Assembly (NCBI GenBank): GCA_049999805.1
Contig: JBNGIO010006281.1
Location: 170,687 to 200,816 of the forward strand
Length of the DNA stretch: 30,130 nucleotides
DNA from: Folioceros fuciformis
Taxonomy: Eukaryota
Direction of reading: 5' to 3'
Below are positions 2,777 to 28,742 of the stretch, piece by piece. Position 1 is the first letter of the stretch; every line of letters starts with the position of its first letter. Below the pieces are notes generated by a model, which was not told the origin of the DNA, searched no databases, and saw only the letters and a program-made list of their open reading frames with translations. Position numbers and translations under genes: made by a program.

Positions 2777-4536
2777 ATGGGCTGCCTGAACTCCAAGCCT
2801 GCCACGATCGTGCTGCCTCCCGGCTATGAGGACCCTGCAGTTCTCGCTGGGGAAACTGCTTGTGAGTTTGCGCGTTCTTGGAGGAACCAGGCGACGGTAG
2901 TTGGGCGTTTGTCGCCACCGTTCTGTTACTGGCTCACGCTTTCCTTCTCTTGCTGGTTGCAGTCAGTGTTAGCGAGGTTGAGGCCCTGTACGAGCTTTTC
3001 AAGAAAATCAGCAATTCTATGATTCACGACGGCCTCATTCACAAGGTCACTTGCTTGTCTGGGGTTTGTATGGGTTCTGCTAGGGCACAGAGACGTGCTC
3101 ATTTCGGGTGCCGGATGTTTAAGGCTATGCATTGCTTTTCACGCAGGAGGAATTTCAGCTTGCTCTGTTTAGGAACAGCAAGAGGGAGAATCTGTTTGCC
3201 GATCGGGTATGGTTGAGCTTATGGTTCTGCTGCAGAGTCTGTTTGTATTGAGCTGTTTCCGAATGTGAAGGTGCTTCCCTGGTGGGAATAAGGGCTGGAG
3301 TCTGGTATCTGACTTGTGTCCTGCCTTAGTAGGTATTTGATGTCTTTGACACCAAGCGGAATGGTGTGATTGAGTTTGGGGAGTTTGTGCGATCACTCAG
3401 TGTATTCCATCCCAACGCCCCTTTTGAAGACAAAATCAACTGTGAGTTGCGAGAGGGTTGCGCCAGAGTGGAAGGTAATCGTCCAGGTTGTTTTCGGAAA
3501 TGACTGAAACTGTCTCTGTCATTTTTGCAGTTGCCTTTGTACTCTATGACTTGAGACAAACTGGCTTCATCGAACGGGAAGAGGTGGGAAGTTTGTAACC
3601 TGACCTGCTTTCGTCGCCTCTGTTGTGTTTGCTGGCACTTTTAAGTTTCCGAGGTGTAGGTAGCGGGCATGATTGGATTCGCACGTCAAATCCTCCATGC
3701 ACAACATGATGCCGTCTAATGGGTCCGCAGTGACGTTGTTGTGCTCGGGTCACGACGCTTACTCTAGCGAATGACTTTTCCAGGTTCAACAGATGCTTGT
3801 GGCACTATTGTCGGAGTCTGATATGAAGTTTTCAGATGATGTCATCGAAGCTATTCTGGATAAGGTATGCACTTGTTGTTCCTTGCAGTAGCTATGCTTT
3901 GCTAAGGCACGTGAATGCGTACTTAGGTTGAGACTGTTAATGGCGAGGCGATTCTCTGTGAGCTGTGTGTTTGCTGGCGGCACTTAGTTGTGTGCCAGTC
4001 ACTTTCTGCACAGCGTTAGAGATCATGCACACCAGCTTCATCACGTGTTAGTGTAACAGAGATAACGAGGTACATCACTTGATTAGACATACGACGAAAT
4101 TTAAGAGGGAAGTGTGTTAAGAGCCTGCATACCTCTGTCGCGTGTGTGTTGACATGGTGGTTCTGAGGTGACCCCCTCATGGCGGGTGGGATACCAATCC
4201 ATATTGTTTTCCTCCCTGCAAACTCTGATTGCCAGAAGCTTGTTTCGTTGTTGCAGACATTTGCAGAAGCCAACACAAAGTGTGAAGGCAGGATAGACAA
4301 GGAAGAGTGGGTTAGCCTTGTGCAGAAAAATCCAGGGCTCATGAAAAACATGACCCTCCCTTACCTCAAGTAAGTCTTCTCACACACGTGGCCACTGGTG
4401 CTAAGTCTTGTGCCCAATAAAGCTTGATTGCCGGTGGAGAGGCATTTAGTTGCGCGTTGCAATGTGTGGATACAGGGACATCACAACCACTTTTCCCAGC
4501 TTTGTTTTTACCTCGGAAGTTGAAGAGATTGTTTGA
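2777..4536 (+). CDS. CBL: Calcineurin B-like calcium sensor (CBL-A), SOS3/CBL4-like, 214 aa
   Basis: Eight exons: 2777-2861, 2963-3045, 3147-3206, 3333-3441, 3531-3583, 3784-3864, 4257-4369, 4476-4536 (internal sizes 83/60/109/53/81/113 nt). N-terminus MGCLNSK fits the myristoylation plus S-acylation consensus. Contains PPGYEDP, a 14-residue EF1 loop [38 protein letters not shown] and C-terminal [18 protein letters not shown]. Confidence 0.96.
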
Positions 4537-6715
4537 AACTTAAAAATGCGAGCGCGTTTTCAAGTTCTGTATGCATCACGACGCTCAAAGAGTATCCACA
4601 GTTGCTTTCAAATGGTAGGTACTCCGGCCATGCGTCGTCTTCTCGTGACTTAAAGTGGCATGGCCTCTAGTTGCAGCTATCAGATTGGGAAGTGTGCCTC
4701 AGGTAACTAAGTCATTTGAACTGGTTAGATCTCGGCTGCTGTGGTTGTCAACTTAGAACTCCGTCCCGAATTCTGTCTATAGCCTGAGTAGCTGGCAACG
4801 CGTTATACCCAGCCTTGATAGGAAACCTCATAGTGGAGACATAAATGAATATGGTTCCTTTTCACCTCTTGTAGAGTGAAGTTGTGTAAGATCGATCATG
4901 CGTGCTGATCCAGAACGTTCTCGGGAATCCATTTGCAATCTTGGGTGCGGTGAAGGGAATCCGGGGGTAGGCCACTTCCTTTTTGTGATGTGCAACCGTA
5001 TGCCAGTGCCGGCCGCCGTCTGTGATGATCCAAAGTAGTGTGTTGTCCAACGGAAGCGTTCTTTATAGGTGACAACACTACACGTGGTTTTCAGTGGAGC
5101 AAGTGGGCAGGCATCGCCTTCACAGCTAATGCTCGAAACGGCTGAGTTGCGTGATTTTCTAAGAGTCATGTGCTCTCCAGAACCCGCCGCCGTTTTCTGT
5201 TGTGTCCTGCCCCTTGACTCTGCCTGCCCATTGTTTTTTGTATCATGTATTTGTCACCATATTGGGTGATGTGAATCACAGTCGCAGGTATTGCCTTGCT
5301 CTGTTGCTACAGGCAGAAGGGTGAAAACCTAGGATGAGGTTGACGAGAAGTAGGCCATGCTTGTGCCGAAGAGATAGCAACATCAAATAAGTTGCTGGAG
5401 AGGTGGAACGGGGAGGAGAATGGGTATGTGCTCTTCCGTAGATTTTGCTACTGGAGCCTGGATCTAAGAATGGATGGATTGACTATAGATGGTGTCAGAT
5501 TGCAATTTTACTGGTGCCTTTCGTTCATGTATTTGGAACATGGACCTTGTTTGGGTTGAATTGGCCACTCTTGCATAGACAGTGAGGTCTAGCTTGCGGT
5601 TCTGGTAATTTTGTCAGGTGAGGCGTGGTAAGTTGCAGTCCGTCAGCATTCCTGCAACTGTCATCCATGGATGTCTCTCGAGATCTGGACAGTGTGTATC
5701 CAGCATGACCGCAGGTGTTTTGTGCAGACTGTTTTCTGTTGCACATGGTTCGAGTTAGAGGTTGCAAAACGTCTAGACGACGGACGCAGCTTTATCTGGT
5801 ATCACCTTTACCAGGCGATAATTACGAGTTGCATGACTGGCCGCGTCTGGCAACTCACTCGTGGCTGAACCAACTCGTTCATCGGCTGTCATGCGAACAA
5901 AGTTTTGGTGTTCTGAGGAATGTGATTGGGTCTTGCTAGGATGAACACACCCAGTTGACCACTAAATTTCTTATAAACTAATAAAGCAGTGTATAATTGG
6001 TTTCTGGTTTCCGCGGATTAGCCAACTGACAATAGAGAAGTTACTTGTGCACTTCTCCGTCATTCCTCTAAAGGTGTCAGCCTGTTCGAAGCACTTCTCC
6101 GCATGGTTCCACCCGGCTGTCTGCAGAATGCAAGTGCCACATGCAATGCAAGGTGAATTATAGTAGGTTCTAGAACCCTCGCAACTCTCGCTGCAACTGA
6201 GATACAGTACATCCTACACCGTAGTTTCTCCTACTGTTTCTCCTACCGGTGGAACGGGAGCCTGTAATGGATCGTAGGAGCAAGAGAGTGGCTTCTTGGC
6301 TACGGAGGCGATGGGCTGAAACCTCGCTCTTTCAAGATCCAGGTAAAGGGAACTTTTCCAAACGTGGGAGGATTCAGTGTTGAGCGTGCAGAGGCCAAGT
6401 CCTGTGTTCCGGCGCAACGTCCAGGCAGCTGGCTCCCTTTCTTTTAGCAGCTTTATATTTACTGTACTTTGGAGCCCGTAGTGGTGTGTACCTGTTCACT
6501 TGGGCTACATGTACCCCCGTTTCAGATGCATGCATAGCTGGCTAATCGTTGCAATGGCGGACGCTGGTGGCACTCTCGCAAAATCCATCACCCATGCACG
6601 GCGTTGTGCGCACTTTGAGGGTGGCGGGCGTGGCAGTCAATGACAAACCGGCCTGTTGGCCAATCTTGTCTTTGATTGCGCATCCATCTCCCGCTGTGAG
6701 ATAGGGATTGCGGCA

Positions 6716-8569
6716 ATGGGAGCCTCTTGTAGCACCGCGCCTGGTGGAATGAGATGTAACTCCCCCGACGAGCATTCAAGCTATGAGAATGCAAAGCTTC
6801 TCGCTAAGAAAACTTGTTGTAAGTTTGTCGTCGGCACGTGGACGACAAGGACTCAAATTGATCAGATCTTCCGTGCCTTCTTCTTCTGCATTCAACTCAT
6901 TGCGCGCGCGCTGCCTGCAGTTAGTGTGAGTGAAGTTCAGGCCCTGTACGAGCTCTTCAAGAGAGTGTGCCCAACCCTCGACACCGACGGCCTCATCCAT
7001 AAGGTGAGTCGTGCAGGTTTTTTCATGGGTTTGCTTCGGACAGGGAACTGCTCTCGTAGACTAGATGGATGCGTGGCTCTCCGGAGAGAGGTATTCAGCG
7101 AGTGTGGATGCGCAGGATGCTTTCAGGTCGGCTCTGTTCGTTTCTCCACCCGCAAAGGATGGAAAGAGGCGCGCGCAAAAGCCGAACATACTTGTGGAAA
7201 GGGTATTGCTGGTCCCTTGTTGCAGGCTTGTATTGTAGACACATTCCAAGTGACTCGTTTTGTGAACGTTTTGCTTCGTAGCCTTCTGTTGATATCGGCT
7301 CGTTACTGGCAAAAGTCCCACAGAATTGACCTCTGTACAGATATTTGAAGCCTTTGACGGCAACCGACAAGGTGGGATTGGATTTCCGGAATTTGTGTGC
7401 TCCCTCAGTGTGTTTCATCCCGATGCTCCTTTCGCAGACAAAATTGCTTGTAAGTATCAACAGGCTCTGCTATAGTCGGATGACGTAGCTGTTTTTGTTT
7501 TCCAGCACATCTGATTTCAGTGAACGTCGTGCAGTTGCATTTGGACTATACGATCCCAAAGGACTTGGCTATATCGATCGCGCACAGGTTTAAGATCTGT
7601 TCCCGTGCTGTAGAGCTTTTCACCCTGATGGGCGACCAGGCTTTATGTGTTTTTTTGAAAATTCTCATGTAGCTCTAGGTCACTGATTGTGTCACTCTTT
7701 TGCAGGATGCATTTGTGTAGGCATGGACACCTTTCAGCCATTTCATACCGTGTTCTACCATGATTTTATGCCCGTGCCCTGGTGAGTGTTTCCTTTCAGG
7801 TCAGGGAAATGCTTCTGGCGGCATTGGGAGAAACTGGCATGAAGTTTTCCGATCAAGTTCTGGAATCCATTCTTGATTCGGTAGGGGATTGGCTGCTGCT
7901 TAAGAATGTGTTTGCACTTGCGATTTGTAATCAGCGCCATTCCTCATCGGCTCCTATCCTTGCGCACTTTCAGCATCTTTGCCGTGATCGCACACGTGTG
8001 CCCTGGCAGCGGTAAGTTACCTTCGGCAAAGTTTCTGCACAGCATTACAAACGATGCATGACAGCTTGGCCACCTGCGAATGTGCAAGGCAGGGGGAGAG
8101 GTACCGTTACTATTGCCATGGTTCTGCAAATCTGTTGAAGGCGGGGTGACCCAGATTTGAGCCTTGCGGCTTTGTCGTATCCCGTCAAATTGCTTGACTA
8201 TAGGTTGACAGAGTTTTCTGAGCTACTTTTCCAACCATGACATTTCCTGGCTGTTTTTGTTCCAGACTTTTGAGGAAGCCCAGCCAAAGCATAAAGGCAA
8301 GATAGATAAGGAAGAGTGGACTGCTCTTGTTACGAAGAACCCGGCCATCATAAAAAATATGACCATACCCCAACTCCGGTGAGCGTTCTGTTCCCCAAGG
8401 CCCACCATTGATGGGCCCCAAAGTTTTGCGCTTAGAACCCACGGCATAATCAAGTGATAATTCTTCAATGTGCAGAGAGGTGACGAAAAGGTATCCGGAC
8501 TTCGTATTCTACTCTCAGATTCCCGAATCTGAAACGTACTTACAAATAGAAAAGAGACCGAATACGTAA
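6716..8569 (+). CDS. CBL: Divergent calcineurin B-like protein (CBL-B), tandem paralogue, 240 aa
   Basis: Eight exons: 6716-6818, 6921-7003, 7116-7202, 7341-7449, 7535-7587, 7800-7880, 8266-8378, 8476-8569, all GT-AG, same phases as CBL-A, no stops or frameshifts. Protein: MGASCS...[15 protein letters not shown]...DGLIHK...[19 protein letters not shown]...[13 protein letters not shown]...GKIDKEEW...[20 protein letters not shown]. Confidence 0.92.
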
Positions 8570-8787
8570 ACCATTATTTACAGATTCCAGATTGTTCGTT
8601 GATATAATGTACATTGGAAGGATCGTCTTGGGATACAGCCTAGGCGTCTGGTCGTGATCACACATCTGTCACAGTATGTAAAGCATATATCGTGAATATC
8701 CAGCTGGAGTCATTGTAACTATCTATTCACTACGAGATAAACTGATATGGAATGCCCAACTGTCCAGGCAACTGCTAACCTACTTCA

Positions 8788-11700
8788 TCAACCCGAATAA
8801 AATGCTCGGGTACCCAGAAACTCCGAACCATTGCCAGCGAGCTCGATAAGAGGCGGCCGTGAACCCACCGGTGAGGACATAAGCGAATGCATGCGATGAT
8901 CTCCAGCGAAAGGGCTGATTGCCCTGGACGACCTGTCCTTTCCTGGATGTAGAGGACTCCTGCCGATCAGGTGCCTGCGAATGTCTTCCAAAAAGGAGCT
9001 TTCGCTCTTTTTCTCCTTCCAAGGTTTCCTCTCCATGTATTGAGTCGAACTCGGCCTTGCACTGTTTTCGTAACTTCTGTCAGGAGTCAGCTGGGGGGAA
9101 GGGACCTTCATGTGGCCAGGGGAATTGCGAACCAAAAACTGTTTCTGGATTCCGTTCAGAAACGAGACTCTGCTCTTTTGGACCGAGCTGTCCCTCTGTC
9201 CCTGCAGCTTCTGGGGGGCTCCGGAGTCGGCAATACCAGAAGGGAGGCCACGGGCGTCACCAGTAAGATCCTCCCCCATGGTTCGTCCTTTTTGGTCGGC
9301 ATTCTTCACAGCAGTTTTCCTGCGCAGCTTGCCAGGGAATAGAGACTGAAAAGTGGGTATCGCCGTCTTCACCTTCTCTGCCGACAGATGCCTTTTCACC
9401 TTCAGATCTTCCGGCCTAATCTCAGCAATTTTGGTCGCAGTGCCATCACTAATTTTCCTGCCGGGCAACTGATGCTTCCACTGTGTAGCGTCTGTGTTTT
9501 TACTGCCGGCTGAGGACACCCTTTGCTGCACCTGTTGCTCAGTGGGCAACTGATACTTTCTCCTGATATTGCTGAGCTCTTTGGTACCCGACTCTGGCCA
9601 GTCGTCCACCACATTCACTGTCCAGCTATTACAATCTTCTTCGGCGCTTTCGAACGCAGACTCTGAGTCACTGCTTGGTTCGACACTGGCAATGTCACTG
9701 CGGTCTTCGTCTACATCCCACGAACCTCCTCCAAACCGTCTGTCCTTCCGCTTGTTTCTCTCGGAGCGCTGGCTGTTGAGATGTCTCAATCGTTCGCGGG
9801 ACACTCGTCTCGACCTTGTCATCTGAGATCCTCTATCGTGAAACCTCTTGTAGGGTGAGTCGGCATCGGCAACACTCATCAGAGAAGGATCACCGCTCTG
9901 TCTCATAGGGCCGGAATAGCTCATGACTGCATCTGCCCTCTTGGCAGTCTTTGGAGAGATGGTGGGCCTAGGCGGACATCTCACCTTTCCCATGGCGCTG
10001 ACATTTCCGTCTATTTCCATTGCTCTGGCGCTTCCATATTTGCTTAGTGAATCTTTGCTGCTAGAAGTTTTAATACGGCCCACCAGATTGTCGGGGTGCT
10101 GTAGTTTTATTGGGCCTGAGTGGCTCGTGTCGGTGCTTCCGTCGAGCTTCTGCCATTCAGACGTCTCCAGCGTTTTGGCCCTGGATTCCGTGCCTGAAGC
10201 ACTACATTCCCCGCCCTCATGATCACCCGTTGCCTCAGACAAATATTGTGAAAGCTCCACTGTGTCCAAATCCTTGTATAAACCAGCGGTCCGTCGATGC
10301 CTTGAAAATCCCATGGGAGCAACCTTCCTGTCTGTTCCCGCGTCACACTTGTATCTGGAAGGGTCGACTGAAGGAGGACTGAGTCTGGACGTAATGTTAA
10401 TTGGCCGAGGACTCTGCAGCTCTTCCTTCGACGTAGGTGTCTTCCGAGACTTGGGTGAAACGTCATTCGACGCTTGTCGGAGCCCTCCCGTCTGGCGAAG
10501 CCGGGTGCCAGCCTCAAGCAGTCTACTTTGCTCGATGGCATGACGACCCTTGACCTGCTCCACCGTTGCTCTTAGATGCGACATGCCTGACTCCAAATCC
10601 CGCACCTTCTGCTCAGCAATCTCAGTTCTGGACTTCCACTCGTCCGCCCGATCAGCCGTGGCTCTCAAGTCAAGAAGGGTTGACTCCAGCTCAGAGACTC
10701 TCTGCTCGGCCAGTGTGGCTCGTGATTCCCAGACCGCATGTTGCGTCGCGGACGCTCTCATACTGTCAAGGCACGACTCCAATTCGCACACTCTCTGCTC
10801 AGCTGTCTGGGCTCTTGATTGGGACAAGGACACCTGGTGATTTCGAGAAGTTAGAGTGATTCAGACATCACGGTACAGGGGGACGACTCCAACGACGCCA
10901 GGAAAGGAGCCGAGCTCACCTTTGTTTGAAGCGTATTAGAAAGAGTCTCAGCACGTAATGCACGTTCTTCCCATTCTGCGCAGGATTCTGACAGGTTGCG
11001 CATGTCTTCGGAAACATGGTGCAAAATTTCCTGAACTTGAGACCACTGTTCGTTTTCTTGATGGAATTGCTTCAAAATGTTCCGGATAGCAGTCATAGCC
11101 CGTTCCTCAGCCCTTCTTTCTTGATCTGAAAGGCCACATTCAGCCTGTTGAATGGCATGTTGTCGAGGTTCTCGGGTTGATGGTTCCTGGGCACAGCGGC
11201 TGTCGGCATCAGAGAACGCTGGAGATTTCAACGAAGATACCACTGGCAAGAAGGTCAAGTTTTCGAGGGCCACGTACCTGGTCACTCGTGCAGAGTCTTG
11301 AAGAGTCTCGTTCTTCGTGCAGCTTAACATTGGGAGGATCAGATTGAGCACTGTTGTGACCATCGCGTCCTTCAACGCCAAGTGCATCCATCTGGCGAAC
11401 GTTTCCTATCCTCAGTACGTCTCGTCATGCTAGCGAACCATGTTTCAAAAACACGCGTTCAAGCCTCCCGACCGAAAACGAAGTTGCTCACCTCACAGCT
11501 GCTGCCACTCTCGCCAGCAAATCCTCTGCCACTGACCTCCATCAACTTGTCAATACTGCTAGCGACGTCCATCTTAAACGCAAATTTAACAGACCGCCTG
11601 GGCGCTTCACTTGCATTCTACGGCAACATCAGGAGATGAAAGGTCAGGACCTGCTATCAGGGTACTACTGCACAACCCACCTCCAAGAGACAGAAATCAC

Positions 11701-13282
11701 AGACCCTTCTCACTTACGGAAGGAAGTAATGTTGTTCACCAAAGACGGACTAAAAGATAAGAAAGCAACCTCCAGCTGGTTGTCTGACTCGAATTGTTGG
11801 GCCTCCTCAACTGCCAACCGGCAGGTAGGAGGGTCAGACGCTTTTGTCTTTCCTTTGCGATTCTTCGCAGGTCTACCCTCCAAAACGTCTGCCTGCCTAA
11901 TCAGACGAGGGAGGTCACCGCTCTTGCTTACACGAGGCTTACTTTGCCGCTCCCCGTTGACAGGCTGTGATGGCCTTCGCTTGGAGTTCCCCCTCAGCTT
12001 GTCCTGTGACAAAAAGTTTCAATCACGGTCAAGAGAGCCGGATAACAGTGCAACAAAGCCAAACCAGCTGACGTAACGCACGTGGAAAAACGTCCAGTCA
12101 GACAGCATTCAGAATCACGACCATTTTGCGCAAGTAACACAATCCAGCTGAGTGAAAGAATTGAAGCGACGTGAGGAGGAATGGAAACACGGGAAGGGGA
12201 AATTCAGTTCTCCGCGCTGAGATGTAGCAAAGACTCTCGACGATACCACGCGGGAACACACAGAAAAAAATGATACCGCGCAACACAGGGTAAGATTCGA
12301 TTGACAGAGAGTGAAGAGGGATGCTGACCCCCATGAGTGAGTCTACAGCCATACGAAGAGTATGAACCGTTTGAAGAGCTTGGTCCATCTCCTGGCATCC
12401 TTGCTTCCACCTGTTGACAGCAAGCTCTCTCTCCATCTGTAGCAAGTCACACTCTTCTCTCAGAGCCTCCGCCTGTCCCCTCCAATGCTGCACCGAGTCC
12501 TCCTGACCTGGAGCGGACGCGTTGACAGGCAATTTCAAGGCACACTTGTTTCTATTGTTGCGGAGGCCTGAGGCTCCCGGAAATTCTTGTCGGCTGCGAG
12601 CCTCAATAGGGGCTCCCTCGTGAGCAGTCTGAAGGTCGTAGTCGAAGAGGTCTCCCCGCGAATTTACCATAAAGCGGTGGAAAACAACCCCATCCAAGGG
12701 ATCCATCTGACAGCTCCTACTGCTCCGTGATCGACACTGAACCAAACACTCTTCTACGGAATCCCTGCATAACTGTGGTGCCGACACTCTGATGGAGCGG
12801 CGAAAACTGGCTGCAGAAGTACGATCCTCTATGTCCAAGGACAGAGACTCCAAGGACTCCTCAAAGGTTGCCATACAAGCACAAGACTCGAGAGCAGTCC
12901 GAAAGGAAGGAGAGTCCAGGTCCTCACCCCGCTCCGACACGGCGTCACCGAAATAATTCACCTGGTCCGAATGCCACAAAACCCTATCCCGCTTCAACAG
13001 CCAGTTGAACTTTCCCTTATGCCCGCCTGAGTCATCACTCAATTCGGCACTGCCGGACTCCAGCTGGGGCAACGACAAATCTGTTGCACCGCCTCCCGAT
13101 TGGACACAAGGCTCGGCCTCTCCGCAGGTCCGAGCAAACTCATCCTGGTCGGGCACAGATTCAACCTCCTCTGGCAAGACCGCGGCCTTGCACTTCCTGC
13201 TACCGAGAAGACGAGGTCTGGACACTTTGACAGTTTGCTTGTCTCTAACGGATCGAGTCCCATCCAATCTACACTGGCTCAT
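8788..13282 (-). CDS. Large uncharacterised coiled-coil protein (~1246 aa; 1268 aa if the ATG at 13348 is used)
   Basis: Minus-strand exons 13282-12329, 12003-11770, 11617-11492, 11391-11278, 11186-10920, 10833-8788 joined by phase-0 GT-AG introns. Helical blocks WRGQAEALREECDLLQMERELA and ENEQWSQVQEILHHVSEDMRNLSESCAEWEERAL recall a plant coiled-coil family (WRFQxEMLRxECNLLR / EQWSQMQEML motifs, from memory, unverified). The C-terminal region is long and S/R/K/P-rich. The start codon and the smaller internal exons are less certain, and the upstream region is cut by the N gap. Confidence 0.78.
10552..10818 (-). repeat. Three tandem 31-aa (93-nt) coding repeats in the coiled-coil gene
   Basis: AEQRVCELESCLDSMRASATQHAVWESRATL / AEQRVSELESTLLDLRATADRADEWKSRTEI / AEQKVRDLESGMSHLRATVEQ (third copy partial). 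Confidence 0.85.
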
Positions 13283-13453
13283 TTTGGGCTCAGAGTAGTT
13301 GGCAGAGAGCTTGAAAAGCGCTACAGCCAGGGAGAAGAGTTCATTCATGAGTTCCAGGACCGCACACTGCGATCGCTGGACGCACACAGGCACGCAAGCT
13401 GGAAGACGATACCTCAAAGCCGACAGAGAAAAACAATCAGACCCCCCCCGCTC

Positions 13454-13553
13454 NNNNNNNNNNNNNNNNNNNNNNNNNNNNNNNNNNNNNNNNNNNNNNN
13501 NNNNNNNNNNNNNNNNNNNNNNNNNNNNNNNNNNNNNNNNNNNNNNNNNNNNN
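13454..13553. other. Assembly gap (100 N)
   Basis: Run of exactly 100 N, a usual placeholder for a gap of unknown size. It is flanked by a poly-C run and GC-rich sequence. Confidence 0.99.
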
Positions 13554-14016
13554 AAGCCCGCCCGCGAGCGAGGCGGAGGGGATAGCCGGACCGGAATTCA
13601 GCTGGACGCAGGAACGAACTGGTGGCGCATCTATGAGGACACTGACCTCGGGCTCATCTGCAAGCTGAAGAAGTAGGCGGTGCGACCGTGTGGCAGCGGT
13701 AGGCTGTAGGTTGCAGCCTGCAGCGCCATTACTCCCTCGAGACCCAGGTGATCCGGTGTGGGCCACAGCGTCTCCTCCCCGCTGCGGGCTGCATTCAATG
13801 TGGACCCGTCCAAATCGAGGCTATCGCCAAAGCTCCGACCCTCTCTCTACCGAGGTCCCGGTGTGGAGTGCGACTCAATGCAATCCGTCTTCCGGCTCCA
13901 GGCTCCAGCCTGCGGCCCGACCAAGCAACAAAGGGGAAGCAAACGAGCGAAGAGCGGAGGCAGCGCCTGCAGCAGCTGTCCGCCAGGCCGGGCAGCGCAA
14001 TTTGAAAAAAGCCCCT

Positions 14017-17222: not shown

Positions 17223-18212
17223 ATGGGAACGCCGGCGTTTCCTAATCTCGGAGAGCACTGCGACTTTTCCGAGTGCAACCTCATCGATTTCCTTCCCTTC
17301 AGCTGTGACCGTTGCGAAAAGGCATGAATCTTTCCACCCTCGTCGTGTATGTTCTGGGGCAGGGGATGCTAGGGCTTTCCTACTGGTTGTGTGTGGATGC
17401 GGACTTCGAGTTGGTCTGTAGACGTGAAACCCTAATGTTTCTGTTTTGCTAACGGGAGTGCAGGGAGAGTTTGCCAGTGCGGATTGACTTGAAGTGTGCC
17501 TGCTCTTGTCGGCATCACCCGGTGGTCTAACAATTGGAGGTGTACGCAGGTTTTCTGCCTGGATCACCGAAGCTATGTCTCCCATGACTGTCCGAAGGGA
17601 AACGTGCACGATGTCACGGTTTTAGTGTGCCCGATGTGCGCCAAGTCGGTGAGACTGGTTCCTGGTGAAGACCCGAATATCACTTGGGACCGGCATGTCA
17701 AAACTAGTTGTGATCCGAGAAATTATGCAAAGGTCGAGAAGCCAAGGTGTCCCGTTCCGATGTGCAAGGAAATGCTCACTATCTCCAACAAGTTTCAGTG
17801 CAAGAGCTGTAGGCGGGAAGTGTGTATGAAGCACAGGTTTGGGCTGGATCATAATTGTGCAAGCTTCATAAATGCTGATAGGGCCAAGAGCTGGTACAAC
17901 TTCTCGTCGAGATCAAGCCAGGGAGCTCGTAGTTCGCAGCCTGCGACATCCAGTTGGTCCAGCGCGTTCTCATCTATCAAATCATCTGCAGAAGCTGGGC
18001 TTTCGAAGCTGAGTTTGTCGGCCGACGAGCTTGTCAAGTCAGTGAAGGGCAGTGCCAGCAAAGTGCAGAATCAATACCTATCGTCTAGTGGACGAAATGT
18101 GTCTTCTGCCGCAGAGATATGTCCTCAATGCAAGGCTCAATTTCGGACAGTGGGAGAGTTGATTGAACATGTGGAGACGTCCCATTCGCGCAGACCTGTC
18201 CAACCATGTTAG
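17223..18212 (+). CDS. AN1-AN1-C2H2 zinc-finger stress-associated protein (SAP11/SAP13-like), 253 aa
   Basis: Exon 1 17223-17321 encodes [33 protein letters not shown]. Exon 2 17550-18212 encodes [17 protein letters not shown]...[27 protein letters not shown]...[37 protein letters not shown] and a C2H2 finger [22 protein letters not shown]. Intron 17322-17549 has a GC donor. Confidence 0.93.
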
Positions 18213-21005: not shown

Positions 21006-22063
21006 TGGAAACTCCATCTTTGTAGAGGGCTACCTACTCCACTACCCCAGCAACCCGCATTTGCCATAGCTCTTTGCAAAGGTATCCAGACTTGTTGTCA
21101 AAAAATAAGGGCACCAGTAAGGAAAGGGAGAGTTTCCCACTAAGCAAAAGGGGGGGGACTGTGTGATAGCCTTTCCAAAGATGAAGCCTGTGCACAATCC
21201 TTGAATAGTCTAAGAGTGCCTTCAACCGCCTGGTGAAGAAATGGCTGCGGATTTCAAGAGCGTAGGTTTGATTTTCAAGCAAGGATGTTCAAAAGGTTCT
21301 CAAAACCATAGAAAAGAAGCAAAAGATTTGGAGGTTCCTCCTACTTACAGTTTTGGTAATATCCTCATGTACTGTACGCACAGTATGCGCAGAGCCTGGG
21401 ACTGACAAAATACAACAATGGTCGATGGCTGATTCGTTGATGGCCAGGCCAACCTCCAGAAAGGAAGTTGCAAACCTAAACATGGAAACGGACAGCGTAT
21501 GACTAGATTGCTTGTCAGACAGCTTGCCGCGCCTGACAATTCTGACACAGCAATCGCGGAGAAGCGCGCAGAACAAGGTGGGAACTACGGCGCGTGAGCA
21601 AAGCAGCTGCTGAGGTCCCGCCCCGCTGGCCTATCTGCCAAAGCGAAGCCTCGGCCACTTACTCCCGAGTCTCGACTGTCTCGTTCCTACAGGGTCGGTC
21701 CTCGAGCTCGGGAATTTCCTTGTCCATGGTCTCCGGAGTTTGGACGGGGAGTTAGCATGATTTTAGAGCTGCCTTTTTATATTTAGTTCCAGCTCCGCAC
21801 TCGGAATTGTGTTCCAGAGCAGGCATGCACGTTCCTGCGAGGCCACGAGGTCGTTTCACGGGGCGGCTCCGGTCTCTGATTCCCGGCTGAATTTTAGGGG
21901 GCTCACCAATCTTACACCTGATGTGCACCTGTGGAGCGCTTGGAAACGTACCGGCGTTGGAACGCGCCACCGCTGAAGAAGATGAGTGAGAATCCTTGGT
22001 GGCGGTAGGATTGCCTGGTGTGGAGCGGGCTCACGCTACTGTCGAAGCTCTTGGCCTTGGACC

Positions 22064-24526
22064 ATGGTGCCTCGGGATGCTATCAATGTTGCTAGAGCAT
22101 GTGCAGTGCTGGTCCAGGTTCAGGGGCCTGATCCCAAGGGCCGGAAGATGAGTCGACACGCGTTTTTCCACTCCGAATCAGGGCAAACCACGCTCTCGGC
22201 TTCGGGTCTGCTGTTGCTGAACGACTCGGAGGTAGACCCTCCGAGGGCACTCACGGTGGTCACCTGCGCGTCTATTGTGGACCCGTTTTTGGTGCAGAAG
22301 CCCAGTGGGGAGTCGGTGGCCAGTACTACGGAGTCTGGTAAGCTCATTGCTGGTGCTAAAGTGGACATTCTTGTTGAGGTTCCCAACGCAGGTGAGCAGT
22401 CCTACTGCTGGGTGCCAGCACAACTGGTAGCTCTGCTTGATGTTCCAGAAGCTGGAAGGGCGTTGCAAGGTCTGCTGGATGTGCATGGAGGAAGTGTGGA
22501 TGGGATTTGGGATGTTGGCTGGTCCTTGGCTCCTGCTAATGAAGATGCCAGAGGACAAGGCCTTGGCCATCAGGCAATTGTAGCGAGGAATTCTTTTTTG
22601 GAGCGAGGAAGCGCGTACGGGGAGCCTGTTTCCAGTTCCACGAGGCACAGGGCCAGTCTAGGGATGACAGCAACCAGGGTGGCTGTTCTCAGTTTATTCA
22701 CAGATGGGAATCGGGAGTTTGTTTTGAGCTTAGGTCAGGTTGCAGGCCGGATACTTGAGATCCTGGAAATGTACAACTTGAAATGCGGGTTGCCTTTGGC
22801 CACGTCCAAGACCCGTGGAGATTTTTTGCTGGCAGTTGGCTCTCCTTTTGGAGCGCTGTCACCTCTCCACTTCCACAACAGCATGTCAGTGGGCTTCGTT
22901 GCTAACGAGTTGCCTAGAAGATCCTCTGCTGCGTCTCTGCTGATGGTGGATTTGAAATGCCTCCCTGGCATGGAAGGTGGTCCAGTGTTTGATGACATGG
23001 GTCGTCTAGTCGGTCTCGTCAGTAGACCTCTCCGCCAGCGCAGTGGTCATGCAGAAGTGCAGCTGGTGACAACCTCGGATGCTTTACTAGGTCCCCTCAA
23101 GCTTGCAGGTGTAAACCTGGGGTTTACCCACGTGCAGCAGGAAGATCCGGTGCCTCAGCGCACGATGGAGAATACTGTGGAGGCAGGCACATGCCTGGGT
23201 GTGCTTCCCAAGCCCGTTCATCATGTCTTCCCCCCGAATTCCATGTCGCCAGCGATTGGCAGTGCTGTATCATCTGTGGTTCTGATTACTATTGGGGATG
23301 CCGCATGGGCTTCAGGAGTTCTTCTGACTGAGAATGGGTTGATTCTGACCAATGCTCATCTCTTAGAACCTTGGCGATTTGTCAAAACACGTCCTTCACA
23401 GTCCAGCATAGTTCGAGGCCTCAGTTGGAACGGTGAAGGGATGCCCGGAGATGTTGGAAGAAACAAGTCTGAGGGAGTATCAATGAGGGAGGAACATGCC
23501 TCTTGTTCAGCCACTCATCCTTTGTGCGAGGTTAGTGGATCAGCCAGTTGTGACTGCCCTAGGGGCGCACATAAGTTACTTGAAGATGCTCCGGGAAGAA
23601 TCCTGTGCAACAAAGCCAATGCAGAGGGGAGTCCTGGCAGAACAGCTCATGCTTCTAATACTAGGCACACTGACACTGTTCACAAAGGGAATCAGCCCAT
23701 CAGGGTGCGTATTGATGACCTTAAGCTAGGATCATGTTCCTGGCATGGAGCGAAGCCAGTGTGCGTTTCTCAGGGACCCTTAGATGTCGCTTTACTGCAG
23801 CTCGACTCAGTTCCTCCTAACATTTGTCCTATCACTCCCGAGAAGGACTGTCCTACTGTAGGTTCAACAGCCGTGGTGATAGGGCATGGTCTCTTTGGAC
23901 CTCGGTCTGAGCTTTGTCCATCAGTCAGTGCTGGTGTGGTTTCCAGAGTTGTGAAGACAGGAGCAGCCACTCTGAACAGCTTTTCGCCGCAGGAGTCCCA
24001 TAGTGATGGTATTCCCAGCTGCGCAGCAATGCTTGAAACGACAGCAGCCGTGCATCCCGGTGGAAGTGGGGGCGCAGTGGTGAATGCTGAAGGGCGTATG
24101 ATTGGCTTGGTTACAAGTAATGCCAGACACAGTGGAGGGACTGTGATACCCAATCTCAACTTCAGTGTACCATGTGCTGCTCTTTCCATAATATTCCAAT
24201 TTGCTGCAGGGAATGGGGAGGATCCAAGTATTTTGCATAGATTAGATGAACCGAATGAACAGCTTTCTGCTGTCTGGGCACTGGTTCCCCCACCCTCGAA
24301 GAGGCCTTCTCCTTTGATACCTCTGCCTCCTCCATCTTCTGCTGGCAACCCTTCAGGTTCCCCTGTCCAAAAAGGCTCCCGGTTTGCAAGTTTTCTGGCT
24401 GACAAGGCTGCCAAGCTGTCCATCAATCCAGGCCCATCCCTGGAGAGTGAGAGAGGGCTCAGACCGCACTCCTCCAACAATGCAGATCACTGTAGTACTG
24501 ATGGCCGTTCTCGTAGTCGCCTGTAG
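22064..24526 (+). CDS. DEG15: Peroxisomal/glyoxysomal processing protease DEG15 (GPP), 820 aa, single exon
   Basis: Continuous ORF from accATGg at 22064. N-terminal VQVQGPDPKGRKMSRHAFFHSESGQTTLSASG and GSPFGALSPLHFHNSMSVG. Degenerate first trypsin-like domain (CLPGMEGGPV). Catalytic triad motifs LTNAHLL, LDVALL and HPGGSGG. C-terminal PTS1 SRL. Confidence 0.95.
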   Translation: MVPRDAINVARACAVLVQVQGPDPKGRKMSRHAFFHSESGQTTLSASGLLLLNDSEVDPPRALTVVTCASIVDPFLVQKPSGESVASTTESGKLIAGAKVDILVEVPNAGEQSYCWVPAQLVALLDVPEAGRALQGLLDVHGGSVDGIWDVGWSLAPANEDARGQGLGHQAIVARNSFLERGSAYGEPVSSSTRHRASLGMTATRVAVLSLFTDGNREFVLSLGQVAGRILEILEMYNLKCGLPLATSKTRGDFLLAVGSPFGALSPLHFHNSMSVGFVANELPRRSSAASLLMVDLKCLPGMEGGPVFDDMGRLVGLVSRPLRQRSGHAEVQLVTTSDALLGPLKLAGVNLGFTHVQQEDPVPQRTMENTVEAGTCLGVLPKPVHHVFPPNSMSPAIGSAVSSVVLITIGDAAWASGVLLTENGLILTNAHLLEPWRFVKTRPSQSSIVRGLSWNGEGMPGDVGRNKSEGVSMREEHASCSATHPLCEVSGSASCDCPRGAHKLLEDAPGRILCNKANAEGSPGRTAHASNTRHTDTVHKGNQPIRVRIDDLKLGSCSWHGAKPVCVSQGPLDVALLQLDSVPPNICPITPEKDCPTVGSTAVVIGHGLFGPRSELCPSVSAGVVSRVVKTGAATLNSFSPQESHSDGIPSCAAMLETTAAVHPGGSGGAVVNAEGRMIGLVTSNARHSGGTVIPNLNFSVPCAALSIIFQFAAGNGEDPSILHRLDEPNEQLSAVWALVPPPSKRPSPLIPLPPPSSAGNPSGSPVQKGSRFASFLADKAAKLSINPGPSLESERGLRPHSSNNADHCSTDGRSRSRL

Positions 24527-25091
24527 TCGGCTGTCTTTCGTATTCGATTCTACCCGTGTGATGTTGGGGTTACTCAAGTGGGCAGGATGGATACAAGGTA
24601 GGTGGTTCGCGGTGTAAATGACGATGACTAGGTAGATGTACAGAAGAGTTGTAGCTCCACATTTTGGGAAGTATGAACATAGACCAGGTAGCGATAAAAT
24701 CTCACCGCGCCGAGGTCTCACAAAGTCTAGGTCGTTTCCCCGGTTCCTTTCGGTTCGTTCCACATTAGGGTTTGAATCTCAACTCTCTTGCAAGTGCCAA
24801 ACAAACTACGGGTGGAGTTTCTCTCCTAAATGCAAGGGGTTGGGTGTTCGTGATCTAGCTCACTGCCCCTGTTTCCTTTTCTAAGGCACCCAGCAAATGC
24901 AGGACTTAGCAGGGCGCGAGGACATATGATGGCAGATCCGATGGTGTGCCCAAGTTCTCCACAGCCAAGCACCTCTCACCATTCTAATGGATGGGAGAAG
25001 GAGAAGAGGAAGGAAAAGGGAACTTGAAAGCAATCCTTCAACGTTCCAATACCTTCCAAAATCCTTCCTGCATGCATGACTTGGCACAAGC

Positions 25092-28000
25092 ATGGAGAAC
25101 GAGCATGAGTCCAAGATTGCCGAGGAAGAAGACAGCTTATACCAAGAAACAGCAGATCTTGAAAATATTCCTCTTGAGGAAGTGTTTGAAAAATTGAAGT
25201 GTACGAGACATGGTTTGAGTAGCACCGAAGCTGACATAAGGATCAAGTTAGTTGGTCCGAACAAACTAGAAGAGCAAAAAGAGAGTTTGATATTGAAATT
25301 TCTTACTTTCATGTGGAATCCTTTGTCATGGGTAATGGAATTGGCGGCACTCATGGCACTAGTTTTAGACAATGGTGAGCACAGACCCCCGGATTGGCAG
25401 GATTTTGTAGGGATTACATGTTTGCTAGTGTTGAACTCAACAGTAAGTTACATAGAAGAGCAAAATGCAGGGCAAGCAGCTGCCGCCTTAATGCAGGCTT
25501 TAGCTCCAAAAGCCAAGGTTCTGAGAGACAATGCGTACAAGGAGGAAGATGCCGCAATCCTTGTTCCTGGGGACATTATTTCCATAAAGTTAGGAGATAT
25601 AATCCCTGCCGATGCTAGATTACTTGAAGGGGATCCTCTACAAATTGATCAATCTGCTCTAACTGGAGAATCCGTAGCAGTCACAAAGAGGACAGGCGAT
25701 GAGGTTTTCTCTGGGTCAATTTGCAAGCAGGGTGAGATTGAAGCTGTGGTCATTGCTACTGGTGTTAGCACATTTTTTGGAAAAGCTGCACACTTGGTTG
25801 ACACAACACATAATGTAGGACACTTCCAACAAGTTCTAACAAACATAGGCAATTTTTGTATTTGCACAATTGCATTAGGAATCATCATAGAAATCATCGT
25901 CATGTATCCCATCCAAAAACGAAAATATCGAAATGGTATTGACAATATGTTGATTCTATTGATTGGAGGGATTCCAATTGCCATGCCAACTGTATTATCG
26001 GTTACAATGGCAGTGGGATCTCACGGGCTTGCAAAGCAAGGAGCAATTGTTAAACGCATGACTGCCATAGAAGAAATGGCTGGCATGGATATTCTATGCT
26101 CTGATAAAACTGGGACATTAACACTAAACAAATTGACTGTTGACAAACACATAATTGAAGTTTTATCAAAATCAGCAGACAAAGATTTGATTTTGCTGAC
26201 TGCTGCACGGGCATCGCGTATAGAAAATCAGGTTGCCAGGTTATGACAAGATGGAATTTCATTAGTACAAGTAGTTTGTTAATGTATGTTTTAGTTCATT
26301 GTCTTGGGTATGAAGTGTTTCATTAAATGAGGATGATGAATGGTGAATGCAGGATGCAATTGATCTTGCAATTGTGAACATGCTTGGAGACCCAAAAGAA
26401 GCACGCCAAGGTATTGAGGAGGTTCATTTCTTGCCTTTCAATCCCACTGATAAAAGAACTGCTATCACATACATCACTGAAGATGGAAAAATGCATCGAG
26501 CTAGTAAGGGTTCCCCTGAGCAAATACTGGAGTTAGCAGAGAACAAAAAGAAAATTGAAGCTAAGGTGTATTCTATAATAAACAGATTTGCAGAAAGAGG
26601 ATTGCGAAGTCTTGGAGTTGCTTATCAGGTACCTTGAAGATTCATGTACTTCTAAAATGCCCACAAAATTTCATATTGATTTGTGCAACAAGATTTGTTT
26701 AAGTTCTTAAAAGGGTCTTGGAGACACCGTCGAGTAAACTTGATGTCATTCACTGACAGGAAGTTCCTGAGTGTTCTAAAGATAGTCCAGGTGGACCATG
26801 GGAAATGCTAGGAGTCCTGCCCTTATTTGATCCTCCAAGACATGATACAGGAGACACAGTTAAGCGTGCGTTGCAGTTGGGTGTTAATGTCAAGATGATA
26901 ACTGGTGATCAATTGGCGATTGCAAAGGAAACTGGGCGTCGTCTTGGAATGGGTACTAATATGTACCCTTCATCAGCCATATTTGGTGCTCACCATGAAG
27001 CATCAACAGTAGGGGTGGATGATGGAGAACTTATTGAACATGCAGATGGGTTTGCTGGAGTCTTCCCAGAACATAAGTATAGTATAGTTAAAAGACTCCA
27101 AGAGAGAAAACATATATGTGGAATGACAGGTGATGGAGTGAATGACGCCCCAGCTCTGAAGAAAGCCGATATAGGTATTGCAGTAGCTGATGCTACAGAT
27201 GCAGCACGAAATGCTGCAGACATTGTGCTCACTCAACCAGGTTAGGTCGACTACTACTGCTACTACTTCCATCACAAAGACAACTTTCTTGCACAACTTG
27301 CTTACACTCTCCCTAAACTTCCTTCACTTCTAGACTAATAAAACTAAAAAGAGGAAACCATGTGCACAGGATTGAGTGTCATAATTAGTGCCATCCTCAC
27401 CAGTAGATGCATATTTCAACGCATGAAGAATTACACCATCTATGCCGTATCTATTACAATACGTATTGTGCTTGGATTCACTTTGATGTCTCTTGTATGG
27501 AAATTTGATTTTTCTCCATTTATGATTCTAGTCATTGCTATTCTAAATGATGGTACAATAATGACTATATCAAAGGTATTTATTTCTCAAACTATTTTCT
27601 CAAATGAATAGTTTGAAAAGCTTTGAATAATTCATCAAATTTGGGTTAACGAAAAAATGATTTATCACATAATGGTAGTGTGTTTGTGTGTTTTGTAGGA
27701 TAGAGTAAAACCCTCTCCGCATCCTGACACATGGAAGCTTGCTGAACTATTTGTTCAAGGTACTTGTCTCGGGGGCTACCTTGCTCTAATGACTGTGTTG
27801 TTCTATCATCTTTTACATGACACAAAATTCTTCGAAGAAAAGTTCAAAGTGCAAACTATTGCACATAATTCTGCTAAAGAAACTGCTGCCATATACTTGC
27901 AAGTTTCAATTGTAAGTCAGGCTCTTATATTTGTGACAAGATCACAAACTTGGTCCTTCATGGAAAGGCCAGGATTTCTTCTGGTGATTGCTTTTATCAT

Positions 28001-28742
28001 AGCACAATTGGTGGCAACATTGATAGCTGTGTATGCAAATTGGGGGTTTGCTAAAATTGAAGGGTGTGGGTGGAAATGGGCAGGGGTTATATGGTTGTAC
28101 AAGTAAGTCTTCTTCAAATCATCTTTCACTTCTCAAATGCCCATGTAGTGAGTTTCATTAAGGAAGGGAGTACTAATCAATCTTCAAGAACTAACTAGAT
28201 CAATGTTTGTGGAGACAGTGTAGTATGGTATCTTCCTTTGGATTTGATCAAGTTTGTTGTGAGATATGTGTTGAGCGGTGAAGCATGGGACTTGTTGATG
28301 GAAAGGAAGATTGCTTTTACTCGTCAAAGAAATTATGGACGAGAAGCTCGTCAAGCACAATGGGCTGCCATCACTAACACTAGGGCAATTGCTTCCATTA
28401 CTGGGACATCTTCTTCTACAAGTAACACTCTCTCCAAGGGAGCAACATCCATGGGTCGTGAAGTGGCTGATAAAGCCAGGAGAAGGGCTGAGATTGCAAG
28501 GTTTGCATCCCACCCATTTCTGTCTTTTAAGTGGAGAGATCTTTGTAATCCCATTGTAATCTTGGTTGTAGTTAGGTGTGATGTGTGATACTTAATCAGT
28601 ATTCTTAATCCTACATTAATTCTTATGCATGTGTGTGGATATTAGGTTGAAAGAACTTCACACTTTCAAGGGACATGTGGATGCTGTAACCAAATTGACC
28701 AAATTAAATGATTCTGGAATGCAACAATCATATACTGTTTAG
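25092..28742 (+). CDS. AHA: Plasma-membrane H+-ATPase (P3A, penultimate-Thr type), 961 aa
   Basis: Exons 25092-26231, 26353-26628, 26760-27240, 27370-27575, 27699-28102, 28219-28500, 28646-28742. Motifs [80 protein letters not shown] and C-terminal QQSYTV*. Confidence 0.97.

Follow-up and report, generated by a model that had tools for sequence, protein, structure and literature searches.

Degenerate EF-hand loops in a tandem CBL duplicate, a possible Ca2+-insensitive CIPK binder

Calcium and CIPK binding in described CBLs

Whether Ca2+ is required in vitro for the binding of CBL proteins to CIPKs, for CIPK activation or for both is described as unsettled (PMC3634423). According to that source, all four non-canonical loops are filled with Ca2+ in the SOS3 and CBL2 crystals, EF1 of SOS3 has been proposed as a structural site and EF4 as the sensing site, removal of Ca2+ destabilises SOS3, and the NAF motif is bound through hydrophobic contacts; the CBL2-CIPK14 complex forms without Ca2+, and SOS3-SOS2 is dissociated by chelators (PMC3634423). 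CBL2 and CBL4 have been reported to bind CIPKs without Ca2+ and to activate them with Ca2+, and the binding of CBL10 to TOC34 to be Ca2+-independent (PMC5156837). EF-hand damage abolished CIPK binding in SOS3-1 (PMC9806564), and the E166Q substitution in TvCBL did so in yeast; in EF4, a change of the Glu-to-Gln type reportedly makes Ca2+ binding weaker, and CIPKs are reported to phosphorylate the CBL FPSF motif for full activity of the complex (PMC4990929).

The gene considered here, CBL-B, resembles the type I CBLs (AtCBL1/9/4-like; SOS3 and CBL2 structures 1v1f, 2ehb, 1uhn and 2zfd) in its four EF hands, its 14-residue EF1 loop and, at 48-55% identity, an 8-exon structure that is also that of its neighbour CBL-A. 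Unlike them, it is without five of ten core Ca2+ ligands, its EF1-EF2 spacer has 32 residues, Cys3 has moved, the phosphosite Ser is Asp and the C-terminus carries about 12 extra residues. Three described cases come close in single respects. Physcomitrella CBL4 is predicted to have a Ca2+-dead EF4 with two ligand positions replaced, as in CBL-B; its description (PMC4030171) has only EF4 affected, whereas CBL-B also loses ligands in EF1 and EF3. Physcomitrella CBL5 is, like CBL-B, a CBL duplicate that is transcribed and spliced and whose transcripts carry premature termination cassettes; it is said to form a pair with PpCBL1/4-type loci that goes back to genome duplication (PMC4030171). CBL-B, in contrast, was copied in tandem, and its protein has changed far more while the frame stayed intact. 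An acidic residue replaces the tail Ser, as in CBL-B, in algal CBLs reported in PMC7461506 and in P0133 (FPEF), but P0133 keeps 10/10 core ligands and the acidic tail of CBL-B coincides with ligand loss in three loops. A dead EF4, PTC-bearing CBL duplicates and acidic tails are already known singly, and what is new is their combination; no natural CBL with three damaged loops and an acidic phosphosite was found in the literature searched (mostly main texts of open papers). CBL-B could serve as a direct test of whether Ca2+ serves CBL-CIPK binding or activation, in a network with only some three members of each family and with a near-normal sister, CBL-A, adjoining it; if it is merely a dying duplicate, it would be one more PpCBL5-like case.

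The tandem pair and its origin

The window, the whole stretch of 30,130 nucleotides analysed, comes from an 87-Mb eukaryotic assembly and contains two tandem CBL genes on the + strand, on which all features of both genes lie. CBL-A (2777-4536) is a type I CBL of 214 aa with 8 coding exons. Among named proteins it comes closest, at 76-80% identity, to CBLs from moss, fern, liverwort and lycophyte, so that the DNA probably belongs to a non-seed land plant with a small genome. CBL-B follows at 6716-8569 and encodes 240 aa in 8 coding exons (6716-6818, 6921-7003, 7116-7202, 7341-7449, 7535-7587, 7800-7880, 8266-8378 and 8476-8569), so that the span of 6921..8378 given by the first-pass annotation was too short. 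All seven introns are GT-AG, with the phases of CBL-A and similar lengths, and the frame is open from MGASCS at 6716 onwards, in line with the earlier statement that the reading frame is retained. CBL-B is homologous to CBLs across the four EF hands, and its EF1 loop has 14 residues, a plant CBL feature (PMC4990929); the top four PDB matches of exon 4 are CBL2/CBL4, and exon-level Pfam scores lie under the cut-off for CBL-A and CBL-B alike and are thus uninformative. Its identity is 55% to CBL-A (114 of 208 aligned residues) and 48-51% to the best outside CBLs. A genome search with a full-length CBL, the counts of which are lower bounds, revealed a third CBL locus, CBL-C on contig C249, and at least three loci with a NAF motif (L025, L026 and L027). 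CBL-C (L003, G000:C249; 210 aa) has 10/10 core ligands intact and groups with CBL2/3-like proteins, yet has a short MGC-type N-terminus, a pairing reported for PpCBL2 (PMC4030171).

CBL-B is a tandem duplicate of CBL-A, as their tandem position, a shared Phe146 (0/55 references), homologous blocks in introns 2 and 6 (for each, 0/300 shuffles reached the score) and their identity indicate. In a tree of 40 selected rows, in which CBL-B forms a long branch (2.18 versus 0.2), the two group weakly together (73/87), with P0252. The divergence is strongly one-sided: the 178 core codons hold 76 differences, of which 58 fall on the CBL-B side and 13 on that of CBL-A, with 5 ties (p=6e-8). Pairwise dN and dS are 0.31 and 1.30, and omega_B is about 0.39 when dS is split equally (bootstrap 0.19-0.65), or 0.57 with the four-fold estimate. 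In a neutral simulation, the 30 changes of CBL-B in 96 conserved columns need a d of about 0.16-0.2, at which the probability is 0.04-0.14 for the absence of a stop (frameshifts left out of the model), 0.002-0.007 for intact splice dinucleotides and ATG, and 0.002-0.006 for changes as conservative as those observed. Because neutral decay of this kind is improbable, the degeneration must have built up in a translated gene; both length changes inside the frame are also multiples of three. These data show that purifying selection, though relaxed, kept the ORF of CBL-B intact while it diverged, a result that is silent on whether CBL-B is still translated. A long-dead pseudogene was considered and rejected, as there are no stops, frameshifts or broken splice sites and the substitution spectrum is not neutral.

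Searches for an orthologue of CBL-B gave ordinary or chance matches. Comparison by phmmer with 1.84 billion representatives, inside whose 50% clusters an orthologue could hide, returned 61 matches with a best identity of 69%, and the ten inspected were ordinary CBLs. A word search with exon 4 gave four candidates, none of which scored; an exon-4 scan with 592 pattern matches led to one locus, L029, a chance match of 18 aa and no orthologue; and the intron-6 pattern had 0 matches in metagenomes.

Loops, tail and transcripts of CBL-B

The loops were compared with 145 near-full-length single-domain CBLs out of 276 fetched proteins (the other 131 being fragments, fusions or gapped), chosen by likeness to canonical CBLs, so that degenerate CBLs are under-sampled and the counts biased. 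CBL-B departs from these references at 35 of the 108 columns conserved in at least 90%, compared with 4 for CBL-A, 15 for CBL-C, a reference median of 2 and 33 for the most deviant reference, a green algal CBL. With respect to ten core Ca2+ ligand positions, a set defined in this analysis, CBL-B is without five, namely X and -Z of EF1, -Z of EF3, and X and Z of EF4; none is missing in 142 references, one in 2 and two in 1. In EF1 (6968-7003 and 7116-7121; a 14-residue loop split by intron 2), the Ser at X, present in 144/145 references and used as a plant CBL criterion, is Cys (0/145) and the Glu at -Z is Ala (1/145), while Asp7 is kept. EF3 (7552-7587) has Thr5 to Leu and Glu12 to Gln, and EF4 (8281-8316) has Asp1 to Gln and Asp5 to Lys with D9 and E12 kept; each of these four changes occurs in 0/145 references. 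EF2 (7356-7391) keeps D1 and E12, with Lys3 to Asn and Asn5 to Gln, and is plausibly the one remaining Ca2+ site of CBL-B. The first-pass annotation had described the EF-hand loops as largely degenerate relative to CBL-A, and this holds, with all four quoted loop pairs present and half of the core ligands gone. It had, however, listed Gly at position 9 among the changes of EF2; AtCBL2 and CBL-C carry the same residue, which is therefore not a defect. Pro at position 11 is present in the second loop of calmodulin too. Its further proposal of a Ca2+-blind protein agrees with the ligand loss in EF1, EF3 and EF4, but "blind" overstates the case: with D1 and E12 still present in EF2 and Asn3 added, CBL-B need not be Ca2+-blind. 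The ligand columns changed more than the other conserved columns (8/13 versus 27/95; Fisher p=0.026), but whole loops did not differ significantly from the rest (13/30 versus 22/78; p=0.17), nor did they in radical changes (p=0.09).

The comparator CBL-A has an EF4 (4272-4307) that is itself non-canonical, with Asn1 (0/145 references) and Glu5 (1/145) where Asp stands in 143 and 142 references; CBL-C has the only normal EF4 among the CBLs found in this genome. The codons permit Asp to Glu to Lys at EF4 position 5 by single steps, and we infer that the weakening of EF4 may be older than the CBL-A/CBL-B duplication. Elsewhere in the fetched set, protein P0243 is likewise without both EF4 Asp residues, and P0244 shares with CBL-B the EF1 Glu-to-Ala change and a Cys after EF2 and is otherwise an ordinary CBL; as P0244 does not group with CBL-B, its likeness is probably convergence.

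Outside the loops, 48 of the 52 hydrophobic columns of the helices are retained and four are lost, much as had been asserted for the flanking helix residues. The related proposal that the fold is maintained while Ca2+ binding is lost at EF1, EF3 and EF4 fits these columns and the selection result, but non-canonical loops of other CBLs do hold Ca2+ in crystals (PMC3634423). The N-terminus MGASCS (6716-6733), described earlier as lipidation-type, appears to be of the myristoylation type: Gly2 and Ser6 are kept, while position 3 holds Ala and the Cys stands at position 5. Cys3 is present in 106 of the 108 references starting with MG and is described as perfectly conserved within the motif MGCXXS/T (PMC4030171). 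The EF1-EF2 spacer, reported as an invariant 23 aa in land plants (PMC4990929), has 23 residues in 141 references, 22 in three and 24 in one, and reaches 32 aa in CBL-B through a basic, in-frame insertion of 9 aa at 7140-7166 (boundaries approximate; the ends of exon 3 are confirmed by RNA joints). At the C-terminus, the phosphorylatable Ser of FPSF is absent: the motif reads YPDF (8492-8503), with the Asp codon at 8498-8500 on the CIPK phosphorylation site. This Asp occurs in 0/145 aligned references, and the 180 tails recognised among the 276 proteins have S in 175, N in 4, E in 1 and D in none. The tail Asp may act as a phosphomimic, but algal CBLs are also reported to carry acidic residues in place of the tail Ser (PMC7461506) and drift could easily lead from Ser through Asn to Asp, so we treat mimicry only as a hypothesis; the literature searched contained no experiment in favour of Ser-to-Asp mimicry in CBLs. 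YPDF, the 9-aa insertion, the Cys3 shift and the non-canonical EF4 of CBL-A had all been overlooked earlier.

Expression data came from one public run (X1), taken as RNA by guess and available as assembled contigs only; its GT-AG joints indicate spliced molecules. All seven CBL-A junctions occur as predicted. CBL-B is transcribed and spliced, with introns 1-4 and 7 as predicted, but its contig uses an upstream acceptor instead of 7800, which extends exon 6 by 94 nt (7706-7799; RNA joint 7584-7703, cut +3), and contains a frameshifting cryptic exon of 127 nt in intron 6 (7974-8100). A stop falls four codons into the extension, at codon 150, so that the predicted protein has 149 aa and is without EF4 and the tail; either the 7706 acceptor or the cryptic exon alone also truncates the frame. 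This PTC form is the sole CBL-B contig (1/1 runs) and explains the depth in 9/9 bins, and the four remaining X1 joints are thus unlikely to be canonical CBL-B junctions. Since contigs lose rare variants and the CBL-B contig continues into a convergent neighbour, neither the absence of the canonical form nor the level of CBL-B can be read from these data. By weight matrices from small training sets, the acceptor at 7706 scores 10.7 and that at 7800 scores 3.6; such scores are a weak predictor, because CBL-A intron 5 is spliced canonically although an unused upstream AG outscores its acceptor (8.4 versus 7.4). The earlier picture of an intact gene with seven retained splice junctions is therefore accurate for the DNA, with its open ORF and canonical sites, but not for the RNA, in which the only transcript of the single run skips the exon-6 acceptor and adds the cryptic exon.

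The cryptic exon overlaps a block of intron 6 homologous between CBL-B (7996-8104) and CBL-A (3967-4073), which ends at a GTAC donor-like site, and CBL-B uses this site for the cryptic exon. A shared, conserved poison exon was considered but is not proposed: the block beats 300/300 shuffles, yet a homologous intron decaying neutrally can attain its score (P 0.01-0.57 at d 0.75-0.9). RNA contigs also reach about 1.5 kb beyond the CBL-A stop (4537-6002), to about 570 bases from the first covered base of CBL-B.

Readings of CBL-B and neighbouring genes

Our data suggest, with a probability that we put at roughly 0.45, a model whereby CBL-B is a Ca2+-insensitive, membrane-anchored CIPK binder. After tandem duplication of CBL-A, CBL-B evolved fast under relaxed purifying selection and lost side-chain ligands in three loops, EF1, EF3 and EF4, which would leave Ca2+ probably at most at EF2; with the damage on these three loops, Ca2+-driven switching was probably lost. 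The retained hydrophobic helices, the putative myristoylation-type N-terminus and the tail motif with its Asp would allow a membrane-anchored protein to grip the NAF motif of a CIPK regardless of Ca2+, and unproductive splicing, as seen in one contig, may hold full-length output low or conditional. This model is supported by the loss of five of ten ligands beside 48/52 kept hydrophobics, by an omega_B of about 0.39, the improbability of neutral decay and a spliced transcript, and by three NAF loci together with published Ca2+-independent CBL-CIPK binding. Counting against it are the PTC at codon 150 of the sole contig, an out-of-frame acceptor that outscores the canonical one, the loop-wide p=0.17, the lack of an orthologue in our searches, the binding lost on EF-hand damage in SOS3-1 and TvCBL E166Q, and the instability of SOS3 without Ca2+, its EF1 being the proposed structural site and that of CBL-B damaged. 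Within the model, CBL-B may, quite tentatively, hold or position a CIPK without activating it, as a decoy; a constitutive CIPK activator seems less probable, since CIPK activation by CBL2 and CBL4 depends on Ca2+ even though their binding does not.

The transcripts bear most directly on the alternative that CBL-B was long functional and is now silenced, the strong intron-5 acceptor and the cryptic exon producing a PTC and little or no protein. We consider this less likely than the CIPK binder, yet its main rival: the sole contig is the PTC form, the canonical junctions gain no depth from any other contig, the 7706 acceptor scores 10.7 against 3.6, PpCBL5 offers the precedent of an early pseudogene (PMC4030171), the branch of CBL-B is very long (2.18 versus 0.2), and the spacer, Cys3, phosphosite and C-terminal extension represent family-invariant features altered together. 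However, one run of contigs drops rare variants, the ORF and all canonical sites are intact, CBL-A splices canonically past an upstream AG of 8.4 versus 7.4, and long decay is excluded by the simulation. A surviving EF2 site bears instead on the view that CBL-B is still a Ca2+ sensor working in another Ca2+ range, with fewer or weaker sites (EF2 and perhaps EF4 via D9/E12). We judge this improbable, since EF1 and EF4, the proposed structural and sensing sites of SOS3, are the most damaged loops, EF4 has Lys at position 5, and the EF3 -Z change from Glu to Gln is of the type that, in EF4, reportedly makes Ca2+ binding weaker (PMC4990929), even though EF2 keeps D1/E12, gains Asn3 and has Gly9 as in AtCBL2, E12 of EF4 is kept, the non-canonical loops of SOS3 and CBL2 are all filled in crystals (PMC3634423), and CBL-A is normally spliced and well conserved despite its own non-canonical EF4.

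It is harder still to credit that CBL-B has left the CIPK network for another target, contacted through the basic 9-aa insertion and the extended tail; these two surfaces, the four lost hydrophobic columns and the Ca2+-independent binding of CBL10 to TOC34 (PMC5156837) are in keeping with it, but there is no positive evidence of a new partner, and most helix hydrophobics and the frame of the tail motif are kept. There also seems little chance that a Ca2+-independent, pre-phosphomimicked CBL-B activates a CIPK whenever it is made, under the control of unproductive splicing and not of calcium; its target in that case might be the divergent intronless CIPK at L027.

L027 (1234-2952, - strand; G000:C4178) is an intronless kinase ORF of 572 aa that could be a partner of CBL-B. 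Its NAF motif is divergent, and the other two NAF loci, unlike L027, contain introns. Within the window, a convergent multi-exon gene at 8570-13600 (- strand) has a long low-complexity exon, coiled-coil-like ends and no Pfam match, and one RNA contig spans CBL-B into this gene, so the 3' ends of the two may overlap. Further along are an AN1/ZFAND2-type zinc finger gene (17493-18212), a trypsin-like protease in a single open frame of 846 aa (21986-24526) and, in a stretch of lower GC, a P-type ATPase resembling plasma-membrane H+-ATPases (25080-28588).
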